Source of the DNA: Patellaria atrata CBS 101060 | Lineage: Eukaryota | Length of the DNA: 64,000 nucleotides | NCBI GenBank assembly: GCA_010093705.1 | Contig: MU006090.1 | Span: 1,825,817-1,889,816 of the forward strand | Reading direction: 5' to 3' | Shown here: one piece after another, positions 16,244 to 21,564 of the stretch | Layout: every line of letters begins with the position of its first letter | Numbering within the stretch: position 1 is the first letter of the stretch | The notes under the pieces: model-generated | What the model was told of the DNA's origin: nothing | The model's database searches: none | Seen by the model: only the letters and a program-made list of their open reading frames with translations | Made by a program: the position numbers and the translations under genes

Positions 16244-18650
16244 ATGAACGGCGCGCCCGCAGCGCCAGGGCTCTGGCAAGAAGCTCGTCATAGCGATGGT
16301 CGAACCTATTATTATAATACACAGACCAAGGTAACGCAATGGACCAAGCCAGAGGTTCTTATGACCCCACTTGAGGTAGGTCTCCTTATTCCATTCCACA
16401 ATTGCAATGCTAACTAAGACAGCGGGCCCTCGCTAATCAGCCATGGAAAGAGTATACTGCGGAAGGGGGTAAAAAGTACTGGTACAATACAGAAACTAAG
16501 AAAAGCTCCTGGGAGATGCCAGAAGTGTACAAACAGGCACTTGCCCATCAACCGCCTCCTTCACTTCCCCCAACTCCGTAAGTACCACCATGAATATTCG
16601 AAAGAATCAACTGACACACCACAAGAGCCCAGACCTTCGTCGCTGGTGCGCCCTCAAACTTTTCCCAGTCCTATACCCACCGCGACCGTGACGATTATAA
16701 TAATGGTGACCATCCTCGTGTTGACCGGCCTCAAGGTTACGCTCCAGCTTTTGTATCGCAAGCAGAACCTGAGTACTCGTCAGCAGAGGATGCAGAAGCT
16801 GCTTTTTTTAAGTTACTAAAGCGTGTTGGTGTACAACCAGATTGGACATGGGAGGACACAGTTAAAGCAACTATTAAGGATCCCCAATACCGTGCGATAA
16901 AGGATCCAAAAGATCGTAAGATTGCATTTGGTAAATATATCGTAGAGGTAAAATCTCAAGAAAGGGACAAGGAAAAAGAGAGGCTTGCTAAACTCCAAGC
17001 TGATTTCACGTCCATGCTGAGAAGCCATCCAGAAATTAAGTATTACACGCGGTGGAAGACAGCACGCCCAATGATCGAAGGGGAGACTGTTTTTAGAGCA
17101 GCCAAGGAGGAAGAAGAGAAAAAGAGGCTCTTCTACGAATACATTGGTGAGTTGAGAAAAGCTCATCTCGACCAGGAAGCTGCCACTCGTAGACAGGCCA
17201 TGGATGAACTTATGGAGATTCTCGGAGCTCTCGACTTAGAGCCATACACACGGTGGGCAGAGGCACAGGGCATTCTAAGCTCAAATGAGCGCTTCACAGG
17301 TGATGAAAAATTCAAATCTCTCCAGAAGTCAGATATTTTGAAAGCTTTTGAGAATCACAACAGATCTTTGGAACGTTCTTGGAACGATGCGAAACAGAAG
17401 AAGAAATTGGGCAAGGCTCGTCGTGAAAGGCAGGCCCGGGATCAATTTCGTAGTCTTCTAGCCGACCTAAGAACAGCAGGTAGACTAAAGGCTGGATCCA
17501 GATGGATGAATATCCGCCCGTTGATTGAAAATGATACTCGATACACCGCGGCCTTGAACCAGAGTGGATCCTCCCCAATGGATATGTTCTGGGATGTGGT
17601 GGAAGAGGAGGAGAGGGTCCTCCGAGGAAAGCGAAGCGAAGTATTGGATGTTTTGGAGGTGAGTCCCTTGATACATATCCTTAGTCAACTATAGTCTAAC
17701 CAATCTAGGATATTCGATATGAGATTACACCGAAGACAACTCTCGAAGATTTCGTGTCCATTATGCAGACTGATCGACGTACAGCTAATTTTGACCCCGA
17801 CTCGCTCACCTTAATTTTCGAACGCCTTCGTGAAAAGGTATTACGTCGTTCCGAGGAAGATAAGCACCATGCCGAGCGGCACCAACGTCGAGCAATAGAT
17901 GCTCTAAGATCTAAGATCAAGCATTTGGAACCCCCCGTTGCGTTGGGAGACACATGGGAACAGGTACGTTCTCGCATTGAAAAATTGGAGGAATATCGTA
18001 CTCTTGACTCGGACGAGCTCCGCCGCTCCGCTTTCGAAAAGGTGATGCGCCGCCTCAAGGAGAAAGATGAGGAAGACAAAGACCGCAGCAGACGTGATCA
18101 TCGTGACAGGGATCGTGAGCGCGACCGTGACTATCGAAACGGCCATGCAACCCCCAGACGCCGTCGCACCCGGACTCCCGAAGCAGACCCATACGAAGCA
18201 GACAGGCGCAAAGCACAGGCAGATCGCGAGCAACAATATCGCAGGGGCGGCGTCCGCGGCCTCTCACCGCCCAAGCGCGACAGTTATGACAGGTATGACA
18301 GGGGCTCCAGCAGACAGGTCAGTCAAAGCCACTATGACCGCGAACGTAGGGAACGCGAAGCAGAGCGGGAACGATCCTACATCAGCCGCGCGGATCCCCG
18401 CGACAAGGCCAGCGAGCTGGACTACGGCGATAGTAGGCCTGGCAGCACGAGACGCCGCCGCGACAGCGAGGGTGACAGCCCCGACAGCAGAAGAGACACC
18501 AAGAGGACCCGCAGAGAACGTCTCTCGCGCGAACGTACTGTTTCCCCCGGGAAACAGCGATCCAAGACCCCGCCTGCTCAACCTGCTCCCCCTGCCGAGG
18601 ATCCAGCGGTGCGCTCTGGAAGCGAGGAGGGCGAGATCGAGGAGGATTAG
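16244..18650 (+). CDS. PRP40: U1 snRNP-associated splicing factor Prp40 (two WW domains, FF repeats, RD/RE/RS-rich tail)
   Basis: WQEARHSDGRTYYYNTQTKVTQWTKP and WKEYTAEGGKKYWYNTETKKSSWEMP, followed by FF repeats and a SEEGEIEED C-terminus. Three introns. Confidence 0.93.
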
Positions 18651-19364
18651 ACGGGCTTTTCGATTCCTTCGCTTCTTCCAGGGGTTGGAGGTTTCGGGTC
18701 TTATCGCGACCCTAACTGGCGAAGATGGTACGTTTCTTAAAGGCGAGAATATGCATACTAATCTCCATTTTCATGCGGCTTCATCGGTTCATCACATAAA
18801 CATCGGAGGAAGCTCATCAGGGATCTCGGTACGTTGCACAACCTCACACTTTCAGTTTCCTGTTTTCCTTCAAAAGTCATTTCTGCACATACAAGTAGAA
18901 GCACCCGTGAGACTAGCTTTTTTTTTTTCATTTTCTAGTATTGTTGAGATCGAGCCCTTCTAGATGGGGTTAAGGATTCCCGTCTGTAAAATAGCATCAT
19001 AGCCCAAAATCGAGCACTTTCCCTCTGCTCGCAAACGTACACGTGATATGGAGGGAAAGAGTGTCCTACCGTAACTCTAGAGTCATCTATACTTTTGACC
19101 ACCGCACAGGGGGACGCCGATCACCTAGCTTGACCCGTACAGTCCACTACTTAGAAAGAAGCCGGACGTGACAGGAGGTAGATCGTGCGTCGCAGTGATA
19201 TGTCATCCTCGTCGTCATCTTCGTTATCGCCGCATTCCTCGTCATAAATGCCGCTCGAACTCCGCCTGATGCCCTTTTTTCCGCCCAAAGATGCACCTAT
19301 AACGCCTTTACCTGATGATACATGCTCGAAATGGGGGTGGGGAGACTCCTTTGGGACGCCCCTT

Positions 19365-21564
19365 TCAAGATTCGTCTTCCAGGAAGAACTGTTTGAGTCG
19401 TTAGCTTCGGTCCCGATTTCTTCATGATTATATTGAGTAAGTGGAGAAGACTTACGTAGTTCCCTGACATCTTCTGTTCCTGGTCCATCTGCGAATTGTG
19501 CTTGTTAATGCGGGGCCTGTAGGAATTGGGATCACGACGGAAAGTGACATCAAGGTTCTTCAAGAACTTGTTGCAGCCAGTTAACAAGCTCTCGGGGGTA
19601 TTTGCGCGAGATTTCACGGCCGGTTGACCGTCGAAGACGATGACGCGATCAGCGAGGTAGGTGGCCATGATGAAATCGTGCTCGACGATGAAGGCAGTAC
19701 GTTTGGTATGCATGATCCACCGTTTAATGACACGGGCGGCGATGATACGCTGTTCCGAATCAAGGTACGCGCTTGGTTCATCGATGAGATAGATATCCGC
19801 TGGGATACCGAGAGCTAGGACGATAGCCACACGTTGCAACTCACCACCAGAAAGGTTCTGTATCTCTTGGTCGATGAAGTCGTCGAGCTTGAGCGGCTTA
19901 TAAACATCGGTCTGAAACTGGGGCGACAAGAACGCTGCCTTAATCTTCTTGAAGAACAGTTGACGCACTGTCCCTTGGAACTTAGGCGTGATCTTCTGCG
20001 GCTTCATACTGATGCTCAAAGAGGGAATTCGTGTAGTTCCATCAGGCTTCTCAGCACCAGCTAGCAAGCGACAGAATGTTGTCTTTCCTGTACCGTTCTC
20101 TCCCATCATGACGATTATCTCGGAATTGGTGAATTGGCCAGCTTCCACTAACAAGTGGAAATCGCCGAGGGTCTTCTCCATTTTCGGGTAATTGTAACCG
20201 CGAGACCTGTCTACCATGAAATCGTCACCTGCTTCTCCTATACGGAACTGGAGAGACTCCTCTCGGAACCGGAGGTTCTCAGTGGGAATATTTCCGTCTA
20301 GGAAGATATTGATACCTTCACGCACGGAAGCTGGGAGTGTAACGACACCGTACACGGCAGGCTTTCCGTATAATACGCAAATGAAGTCGGACAAGTAATC
20401 AAGAATAGAAAGATCGTGCTCCACGACGATCACATAGTCATCCGGACGGAGCAACGATCGGATCATTCGACCAGCGCTCAGACGTTGCTTGACATCTAAG
20501 AACGACGACGGTTCATCAAACATGTAGCTAGGTACGTATCAGCAACAATATAATAACCATTAGTCGCACGGATCGGCCATACACATCAGCTTTTTGGACA
20601 CAAACGATCCCAATGGCGAAGCGCTGCAGTTCTCCACCTGACAGGTGATTCACATCTCGATCCATTATATGCTTTAATTCCAGGACATCAATGATTGCTT
20701 CAAGATTGTCCATCTGAGCCCTTTGCTTGAGAAGGAAGCCCACAGATTTATCTGGGCCTTTAATGGCCTTGGGTATCTGGTCAACATACTGCGGCTTAGT
20801 AATGGCTTTCAAATCATCCTCAAGAATTTTGGTAAAGTAGTCTATATATGTCAGTCCTAATCATCCATTCGAACTTTTGCGGATACCCACTTTGCAATTC
20901 AGAGCCACGGAAATACTTCAAAATCTCCTCCCAGTCAGGAGGATTGTCATATCTGCCCAAATTTGGTTTCAACTTTCCACTCAGGATTTTAAGAGCTGTA
21001 CTCTTCCCAATACCGTTCGTTCCCACCAGCCCAAGGACTTGTCCCGGCCGCGGTGTAGGAAGTCGATGTAGCTTGAAACTGTTGGCGGAGTAACGATGTG
21101 TGACTTGCGTCTCGAGGTTGGTGGGCAAGTTGATGATGTTGATCGCATCGAAAGGGCACTTCTTAGGGCAGATACCGCATCCGATACATAGTCGCTCGGA
21201 GATGAAGGCGATTTTGGACTCTGGGGTGACCTCTATACAAAGTTTGCCTGTCCGGACAACAGGACACGATTTCTTGCATTCTTGTCTGCATTTCTGTGCT
21301 CAAGTCAGGTTCGATCTTATCTTTCAGAACGGAGGACTAGAGCTGACCTTGGGCTTGCACTACACTCAGGAAACATCGTCAGTCAATTTCGTCCTCAACC
21401 TTCCCACAAAACATATTTTGTATCTATGTGCGCGGGGTAGTGGGGCAATAAGAATGCGCACCTTATCGCTATTTACAATAGCTATACTAATTGAGGAGTC
21501 GTATCAGTAAGATGCCAAAGAATATTCATGCTTGATATCCCTACCGTGTGAGTTTGTCCGCCAT
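19365..21564 (-). CDS. RLI1: ABCE1/Rli1 Fe-S ABC ATPase, ribosome recycling factor
   Basis: [46 protein letters not shown]e-S domain and two NBDs ([26 protein letters not shown]). Last intron 19455-19389, then FFLEDES-TGA. Confidence 0.98.

Follow-up and report, generated by a model that had tools for sequence, protein, structure and literature searches.

RLI1 (ABCE1) encodes an essential recycling factor that carries iron-sulfur clusters and is sensitive to stress. In a 64,000-nucleotide (nt) stretch of DNA from Patellaria atrata CBS 101060 (contig MU006090.1, positions 1,825,817 to 1,889,816; hereafter the window, whose own numbering is used throughout), the RLI1 gene is directly followed by a 71-codon open reading frame (ORF) that begins within the RLI1 stop codon, in the +1 frame. 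The comparison with relatives set out below shows this downstream ORF (dORF) to be a true coding region that is under selection and bound to the stop of RLI1: it is conserved, it bears the mark of coding-type selection, it has no conserved AUG, it abuts the stop in all three frames, it occurs independently of the terminal RLI1 intron, and it is associated with a conserved hairpin at a fixed spacing. A full-text literature search returned no description of a post-stop ORF, a C-terminal extension or a hairpin in the untranslated stretch 3' of the coding sequence (3'-UTR) for RLI1/ABCE1, nor any paper describing how the level of Rli1/ABCE1 is kept balanced. The peptide itself is already in databases as the product of predicted junctions, and no comment on it was found.

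An open reading frame touching the RLI1 stop codon

The RLI1 exon of the window shares 84-90% identity with proteins named RLI1 by their sources. The dORF had been proposed in a sequence-only reading of the window, whose coordinates and 71-residue translation proved exact: RLI1 ends in FFLEDES followed by TGA, and the +1 frame stays open up to the TAA at 19153-19151. That reading had called the frame GC-balanced; the G+C content is 53.5% in the dORF against 46.4% in the rest of the intergenic DNA (the 717-nt stretch up to the stop of the convergent gene). Taken from the window alone, such a frame could be due to chance, given that dinucleotide shuffling of the 3' region produced a +1 ORF of at least 71 codons in 110 of 5000 replicates (2.2%) and an ORF of that length in any frame in 344 of 5000; it is the comparison of relatives that makes the dORF real.

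The relatives were metagenome loci encoding RLI1 at 67-91% identity: confirmation succeeded for 573 of 585 candidate stretches, from which the best 80 were taken. Nine of these end before the stop, and the remaining 71 together with the window provided 72 RLI1 loci with post-stop DNA, in which the three downstream frames were read after the located RLI1 stop. A homologous ORF touching the RLI1 stop was found at 63 of the 72 loci; as tips of the tree, 36 lie in the +1 frame, 18 in the +2 frame and nine in frame 0, with about 18 loci assigned to their frame by shared motifs, the hairpin or the codon-position pattern and scored weakly by a profile seeded with +1 peptides (the weaker assignments being found among L015, L016, L020, L022, L023, L025, L027, L041, L057, L062, L065, L067-L075 and L079). 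The nine loci without a dORF either possess yeast-like tails (FFLENTEL, FFLDSTGL) or branch below the dORF-bearing clade. Alignment across Pezizomycotina had been proposed as a check on the original idea, and the dORF is indeed kept across distant members of this group, though the frame varies (+1, +2 or 0).

The encoded peptides share a common build (alignment A3), with (E)(K/E)G(I/V)P(K/R) a few codons from the stop, then a variable stretch rich in histidine or basic residues, GVLG or a basic cluster, G-L-x-D-E-E and finally an acidic tract ending in ..DDI or ..PDI. The core of the window dORF follows the same plan, reading ERGVPK... GVIG ... GIYDEE ... and closing with the acidic tract DNEDDDEDDI. 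Because the stop that follows ...DDI in most relatives is TCA in the window, the window dORF reads on through ISLRRTIYLLSRPASF. This segment, which the sequence-only reading had taken for a hydrophobic tail, is unconserved as protein and corresponds to the 5' arm and loop of the conserved RNA hairpin.

A local tblastn search with the window peptide gave matches directly after RLI1 and on the same strand in many loci (for example 50% over 58 residues in L001; 40% over 67 in L058-L060), and a profile built from 20 of the +1 peptides matched about 45 loci at E values of 1e-6 to 1e-20, always within the stop-touching ORF. A word-based search with the 71-residue peptide returned one candidate and none at E<=0.01, and an 8-mer pattern scan of the metagenome contigs returned 588 pattern matches with 0 confirmed, both approaches being blind to the relatives that the local tblastn search later found. 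At the protein level, an exhaustive phmmer search of 1.84 billion representatives yielded only four matches at E<=1e-3, three of them the small ORFs P0004-P0006, and a profile search of proteins with A3 recovered five small proteins from a candidate list saturated by acidic words.

Selection on the encoded peptide

Mismatches were counted by codon position in a nucleotide alignment made without reference to frame. Over 14 phylogenetically independent pairs they numbered 139, 117 and 234 at positions 1, 2 and 3, respectively (chi-square p = 5e-11), and the third-position excess persisted when the acidic tract was removed (109, 86 and 175; p = 3e-8). The same excess is found in each frame class, with 11/7/23 for L068/L072 (+2), 9/10/15 for L025/L027 (frame 0) and 4/1/17 for L035/L036 (+1). 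Third positions also vary just after the stop (GGC/GGT/GGA, ATC/GTC/GTT/GTG, CCA/CCC/CCT/CCG), as for selection at the protein level, and conservation is in frame upstream of the acidic tract and frame-independent downstream of it. The ratio of non-synonymous to synonymous substitution rates (dN/dS), for which a value below one had been named as a further check, is about 0.15-0.8 between pairs in protein-guided alignments, which bias it low.

Among 22 of the +1 loci, the dORF frame contains 0 stops, against 34, 129, 35, 35 and 21 in the other five frames. As this set was chosen by its ORF, the count only excludes another frame or strand; an antisense gene was rejected on this ground.

The peptide looks like a disordered, acidic-ended segment. 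Pfam-A gave no match at E<=0.1 for 52 of the 53 aligned dORF members, and the Zn_ribbon_NrdR match in the remaining one (E = 0.012) is weak and was taken as chance. An ESM Atlas search with the dORF peptide gave no usable match.

Entry into the downstream frame

An in-frame ATG within 60 nt upstream is absent at 44 of 56 loci, the window included, and at 29 of the 56 the dORF contains no methionine codon at all. Where such an upstream ATG exists (12 of 56), it lies mostly at -9 nt, arising there from the RLI1 codons ..GAT GAT AGT TGA or ..AAT GAG AGT TGA. Loci in which these codons create the ATG (L012, L014, L024, L039, L041, L050, L058, L076, L077 and L079) resemble viral termination-reinitiation sites, and an ATG overlapping the stop itself (TCATGA) was seen in one library protein, P0006. 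The features of a termination upstream ribosome-binding site (TURBS) were not found as a rule, there being no general AUG at the stop and no conserved upstream element in the RLI1 exon.

Whichever of the three frames it occupies, the conserved peptide sets in 1-14 nt past the first stop-codon base. At some loci the dORF frame is shut by a stop 6-12 nt upstream of the RLI1 stop, and entry must therefore take place at the stop or within the last two to four codons. At L011, L042, L046, L067, L072 and L074, the dORF frame extends without a stop for 1-2 kb upstream within the RLI1 exon, which is probably a by-product of codon bias; long spurious ORFs from gene callers are explained by such open frames.

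Fitch parsimony on a tree of RLI1 yields at least eight changes in the frame relation between the dORF and RLI1 and places +1 at the root. Collapsing weak nodes left this number unaltered, and in label shuffles the mean was 23.7 and the minimum 18. These shifts stem from differences of 1-4 nt in the stretch of purines that separates the stop from the GGC of G(I/V)P. The RLI1 stop is TGA at all 32 distinct loci of the +1 class, and is followed by a purine, A in nearly all and G in L039; the +2 class has 13 TGA, three TAA and one TAG, and the frame-0 class four TGA and two TAA. The TGA usage of the +1 class is a feature that does point to the stop itself.

A conserved hairpin at the end of the dORF

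At the end of the dORF there is a hairpin (Table 1), not noted in the sequence-only reading, built from two motifs, ..CGGCAGUCUACCUCCUG.. and ..GGGUCAAGCUAGGUGACUGCCG.., with a variable apical domain and loop. RNAalifold returned the same fold from 17 sequences, in which 12 of 22 pairs stay paired through changes on both sides. On the manual structure 95.1% of cells are paired, compared with 25-53% when the partners are slid, and compensatory double changes amount to 21 cells against 5.9 +/- 1.9 in shuffles (0 of 500 reach 21). The covariance model R1 recovered the hairpin at 27 distinct loci (73 sources gave 28 matches, of which one was a duplicate), comprising the window, L002:3953-4076, L004:1705-1785, L024:4046-4182 and 23 more; the matches always lie on the RLI1 strand and start at the dORF end, and the added ones contribute further covariation in the 4-base-pair helix (ACCU/AGGU, AUCC/GGAU, GUCC/GGGC). 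Rfam 15 covariance models gave 0 matches at E<=1 in window positions 18600-19500.

The hairpin is situated downstream of the RLI1 stop, at a distance of 146-248 nt. At 18 of the 27 loci the dORF stop precedes the first stem pair by 1-7 nt (mostly 6-7, and exactly 7 in 12), and the other nine, the window included, lack this dORF stop, the reading frame continuing into the hairpin. The spacing from the acidic tract to the stem is 8-13 nt at 26 of the 27 loci. The convergent pair formed by RLI1 and a PRP40-like gene is syntenic in many metagenome loci. At L012, L024, L039 and L062 the dORF and the hairpin stay with RLI1, with no PRP40-like neighbour within about 2.4 kb; at L013, which has no R1 hairpin and likewise no such neighbour within that distance, the dORF alone stays with RLI1.

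The large +2 clade (L015, L016, L020, L057, L065 and L067-L075) gave no match to R1. Its members carry a cluster resembling a nuclear localisation signal, together with GTKRRR.(I/L)KSGADE.L, before the acidic tract. Other conserved 3'-UTR stretches are common to L068-L073, for example a palindromic segment around GTCGA..GCCAGGCAATGGGCATCGAC.

Table 1. Features of the RLI1 locus and its surroundings in the window
Feature	Position	Strand	Basis or remark
RLI1/ABCE1 last large exon	19456..20526	-	357 codons; translation, Pfam ABC_tran match
RLI1 terminal intron	19389..19455	-	67 nt, GTAAGT...CAG, phase 0
RLI1 terminal mini-exon FFLEDES	19368..19388	-	Translation; canonical ABCE1 C-terminus FFLE.. 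in all relatives
RLI1 stop codon TGA, then A	19365..19367	-	Translation; local context TCT TGA A
dORF, +1 frame, 71 codons	19151..19366	-	TAA at 19153-19151
Conserved core of the dORF, 56 codons, +1 frame	19199..19366	-	Profile matches in relatives, alignment A3, codon-position test
Window-specific dORF continuation SLRRTIYLLSRPASF, then TAA	19151..19198	-	Unconserved as protein
In-phase AG within the mini-exon	19376..19377	-	Possible alternative 3' splice site; not a general route
GT of alternative donor GTCAGG	19467..19468	-	Sequence; use depends on the terminal intron
Conserved hairpin	19113..19191	-	Covariation; minimum free energy in the window -34.1 kcal/mol, z = -3.16
Outer stem of the hairpin	19191-19181 with 19122-19113	-	About 10 base pairs
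Bulged U of the hairpin	19180	-	Alignment
ACCU/AGGU helix	19179-19176 with 19126-19123	-	
CCUG/CGGG helix	19175-19172 with 19137-19134	-	(C/U)GGG in relatives
One-sided 7-nt internal loop UCAAGCU	19127..19133	-	Nearly invariant; alignments A1, A2
Convergent gene, 3' end	17709-18650	+	PRPF40A-like FF domain, then Arg/Asp/Glu/Ser-rich tail

Proposed translation beyond the stop codon

Translation past the stop is favoured as the route to the dORF because the frame is AUG-less, may be any of the three, sets in at the stop and is independent of the intron. It is on balance with moderate confidence, about evenly poised, that the dORF is proposed to be decoded by ribosomes that pass the stop of RLI1 abnormally, through failed termination or failed recycling. 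AUG-independent translation by unrecycled ribosomes was one of three routes named by the sequence-only reading, and it fits both the pattern across loci and the published effects of ABCE1/Rli1 depletion. In human cells, ABCE1 knock-down was reported to cause more readthrough and continuation in different frames, with detection of a +1-frame fusion product, and this was put down to collisions forcing the terminating ribosome, once stalled, into the 3'-UTR (PMC7544199). Reinitiation upon impaired recycling was described as scarcely selective for start codon or frame (PMC10275272), 80S reinitiation as weakening with distance from the stop (PMC11952965), and 80S reinitiation in yeast after Rli1 depletion is credited to Young et al. 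2015 by both of the latter (PMC10275272, PMC11952965).

Two courses of events can be envisaged. A ribosome pushed or slipping past the stop with the Rli1 chain still attached would produce a C-terminally extended Rli1; alternatively, Rli1 would be released and an unrecycled 80S ribosome would stay on the mRNA and resume beside the stop, producing a free acidic peptide of about 45-100 residues. Both would be AUG-free and could operate in any frame, and for each of them an increase is reported under limiting Rli1/ABCE1. The extended Rli1 is favoured over the free peptide by the apparent natural fusions found among public protein models, which are taken up with those models below.

As the dORF abuts the stop of the recycling factor itself, its translation would amount to a read-out of Rli1 sufficiency. 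In the usual layout, a ribosome translating the dORF would come to rest about 7 nt short of the hairpin, in a position from which the stem could be opened at its base or a bound factor dislodged. A spacing of about 7 nt is that which, from work on recoding signals, places a structure at the mRNA entry of a ribosome with the stop in its A site. The remodelled hairpin, the product (an acidic Rli1 tail or a free peptide), or both might then feed back on the RLI1 mRNA or protein and so restore the supply of Rli1. From these features we infer, tentatively and with less assurance than for the decoding of the dORF as such, that the RLI1 mRNA of filamentous ascomycetes may carry a built-in monitor of termination and recycling, consisting of an AUG-less post-stop ORF and a hairpin, in line with the autoregulatory sensor suggested by the sequence-only reading.

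Several points weigh against this proposal. Both the dORF and the hairpin are known here as DNA sequence, and R1 finds the hairpin at only 27 of the roughly 55 distinct dORF-bearing loci; to this is added the weaker frame assignment of some 18 loci given above. Selection on the dORF is only moderate at the dN/dS values found, with their downward bias, the mid-part of the peptide is poorly conserved, and an AlphaFold model of the dORF core has no secondary structure (predicted local distance difference test score 63.6, predicted template modelling score 0.14). A sensor acting purely through ribosome transit would have no need of a conserved peptide and would leave the function of the peptide unexplained. 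The in-frame fusions apparent in protein models of Beauveria and Akanthomyces would fit a fused extension better than a free peptide. Finally, in-phase AGs, that is, potential acceptors that would join the RLI1 exon to the dORF frame, occur at 22 of the 25 intron-bearing loci, and splicing could be the route in some lineages.

Splicing and public gene models

Alternative mRNA processing, be it through a 3' splice site, a donor or intron retention, would yield a second Rli1 isoform with an acidic disordered tail in exchange for FFLEDES. Two splice routes are arithmetically possible in the window, one from the donor at 19468 and the other to the AG at 19377-19376, 13 nt into the mini-exon, and both fit the dORF frame. 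The former had been put forward by the sequence-only reading; its GT is present and would splice into the frame as claimed, but it is not supported as a general route, since the terminal intron is present at 25 of the 55 distinct dORF-bearing loci and absent at 30. Intronless loci display the same codon-position pattern as the others (L035/L036 as given above; L015/L016, 9/11/26). The in-phase AGs, which the window shares, occur at 22 of the 30 loci that lack the intron, a frequency similar to that among intron-bearing loci, and hence are not specifically maintained, and L065, L068 and L070 bear the intron without any. An alternative exon with donor and acceptor in all dORF lineages is accordingly not what the loci present. 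An AG|GGC acceptor was also considered as the reason for frame independence and rejected, as it shows no association with the intron (13 of 25 with, 14 of 30 without).

Intron retention was rejected as a general route because the frame fits by length at only 10 of the 25 loci, near the one-third expected by chance; the retained intron reaches the dORF frame without an in-frame stop at eight of the 25, which are clustered in two clades.

Public gene models, which the sequence-only reading had not brought up, seem at first sight to speak for such an isoform. A search with the RLI1 exon for proteins of more than 625 residues scored 7999 candidates, of which 1308 reached E<=1e-50, and 120 were listed. 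A dORF profile match at E<=1e-3 was found in 59 of these 120 listed models. The peptide is joined directly after GN(Y/F) in 33 of the 59, for example ..GNY-KRVEKGVPRD.. in Paracoccidioides brasiliensis and ..GNF-GIPGKHN.. in Aspergillus fischeri; 16, several of them Penicillium, read across the intron, four keep FFL.. and then continue into the extension, and six have no anchor motif. Yet ab initio callers prefer longer ORFs, so that the models are no evidence of junction use, and the extensions are likely to be annotation choices rather than shown isoforms. With the two sides taken together, processing of the mRNA is regarded as an unlikely source of the dORF product. The models with the peptide (P0013, P0024, P0026, P0035-P0043, P0118 and others) are 640-750 residues in length and bear source-given names from Paracoccidioides, Aspergillus, Penicillium, dermatophytes (Trichophyton), Sporothrix, Xylaria and lichens.

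A different arrangement is seen in models named Beauveria, Akanthomyces and Cordyceps (P0078, P0086 and P0067), which read FFLDDNDDK-GIYRDK...EEDEPDD in one frame (GIYRDKAPP in those named Beauveria and Akanthomyces). The Beauveria and Akanthomyces tails are too diverged for a dORF profile match. Going by these protein models, all three look like cases in which the RLI1 stop was lost and a natural in-frame fusion was formed.

Site-specific recoding and other alternatives

In classical site-specific recoding, a +1 shift would take place at NNN-UGA-A, with readthrough in the frame-0 lineages and a -1 shift in the +2 lineages. The sequence-only reading had compared the +1 slip in the window with the antizyme and RF2 shift sites. 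Slippage at the stop as such fits the pattern among the loci: +1 is the ancestral and commonest frame, the stop of that class is TGA throughout and a purine comes next, and, as the dORF frame is shut just upstream at several loci, any shift must occur at the stop. There is moreover a precedent in filamentous ascomycetes in YIP3, whose frame relation likewise differs between orders (PMC3777964), and the annotated in-frame fusions of Cordycipitaceae suggest that a fused product would be viable. A strict antizyme- or RF2-type site is doubtful, on account of the eight or more frame changes and the variable last codon. The last sense codon, which would occupy the P site, may be AGT, AGC, TCT, TCG, AAC or AAT within the +1 class, and no structure is conserved within about 10 nt 3' of the stop, where third positions vary. 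Nor is an upstream stimulator visible, as synonymous variability does not drop in the final 45 codons of the large RLI1 exon, which ends at GNY (0.71-0.72 against 0.76 overall). Each of the eight frame switches would have needed a new recoding mechanism, the +2 contexts (TCC TGA AAG G) are not slippery, and the frame-0 contexts include TAA G. The fixed frame of an antizyme- or RF2-type site is not observed among the 36, 18 and nine tips of the three classes, and simple in-frame readthrough would apply to six of the 55 distinct loci, the window itself being +1. Site-specific recoding is therefore considered quite unlikely, and the translation by abnormally terminating or unrecycled ribosomes proposed above, for which an AUG-less frame of any phase with its onset beside the stop is the expected picture, is preferred.

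Three narrower ideas were also set aside. Neither pairing between the UCAAG loop and the region of the stop codon nor tRNA hopping onto a codon repeat was retained, the contexts being inconsistent among loci when inspected by eye, and A-to-I stop-loss editing (PMC13123824) could serve the frame-0 lineages only.

It is highly improbable that the dORF is not translated from the RLI1 mRNA at all and represents an independent small gene or RNA or DNA elements of the RLI1 or PRP40-like 3'-UTR, for although the hairpin shows that RNA-level selection acts in the region, the convergent PRPF40-like neighbour is syntenic in many loci and the acidic tract is purine-rich sequence of low complexity, the third-position excess survives removal of that tract, only the dORF frame is open while the other frames of both strands carry stops, no conserved AUG is available for an independent gene, the cassette stays with RLI1 where the PRP40-like neighbour is lacking (dORF and hairpin in four loci, the dORF alone in L013), and conservation follows the frame upstream of the acidic tract and disregards it downstream.

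Comparison with known systems

The 3'-UTR translation seen on depletion of ABCE1/Rli1 resembles the proposed decoding of the dORF in its onset at or beside the stop, its independence of AUG and its use of any frame, and in the known systems it rises when the recycling factor is scarce. In the depletion studies it is an unselected, genome-wide side effect; the RLI1 dORF differs in being specific, under purifying selection, located on the mRNA of the factor itself and paired with a hairpin. The closest worked-out analogue is the circuit of plant eRF1-1, a termination-related factor that likewise makes use of its own stop and 3'-UTR, and in which the passage of ribosomes beyond the stop depends on the level of the factor and feeds back on its own mRNA (PMC5397192). 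That circuit differs in relying on in-frame readthrough, a promoting context and a 3'-UTR intron that induces nonsense-mediated decay (PMC5397192). The RLI1 dORF is mostly out of frame, its peptide is itself conserved, and no 3'-UTR intron was seen.

A second group of likenesses is with programmed shifts and extensions at or past a stop. In RF2 (prfB) and antizyme, the shift yields the functional protein, both the site and the elements stimulating it are conserved, and the frame relation does not vary. RLI1 is like them in having a UGA in the mRNA of a factor that sets the competition at that very stop, and this UGA is invariant in the +1 class. It is unlike them in that canonical Rli1 is complete when the stop is reached, the codon in the P site is variable and the frame has changed at least eight times. 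The AMD1 tail is in frame and acts through nascent-peptide arrest and ribosome queuing. The RLI1 dORF shares with it a conserved coding extension past the main stop, the end of which would be a defined stopping place for rare ribosomes; unlike the AMD1 tail, the dORF has an RNA hairpin about 7 nt after its stop. With YIP3, the dORF has in common a two-ORF layout kept across Pezizomycotina with a frame relation differing in some orders (PMC3777964). In YIP3 the coding region itself contains a slippery site and a pseudoknot, whereas the RLI1 case is situated at a natural stop and no nearby stimulator was detected.

Whether 3'-UTR translation after failed recycling has a biological role was called unclear in a review (PMC10275272). 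The RLI1 dORF and hairpin would offer a tangible candidate for a role of this kind, one that is amenable to genetics and testable in Aspergillus, Neurospora or Fusarium. If true, it would be the first cellular case of an evolved function for 3'-UTR translation by improperly terminated or unrecycled ribosomes, as well as the first autoregulatory device described for ABCE1, and it would belong with the autoregulatory decoding events known from translation factors, at the stop codons of their own mRNAs. For annotation, it matters that many public RLI1 models carry the peptide through predicted splice junctions that may not exist.

Sequencing-run contigs

Contigs of two sequencing runs that aligned to the window pass through introns and are thus DNA-like, so that they do not inform on expression either way. 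One record of run X2 (record 5), which aligned to window positions 19458-19491 and 19628-19693, is a low-depth contig of 1112 letters with the diverged RLI1 of another organism; it has no intron at the site of the terminal intron and possesses a loose end of the form ...YFLEEEN, followed by TGA A.

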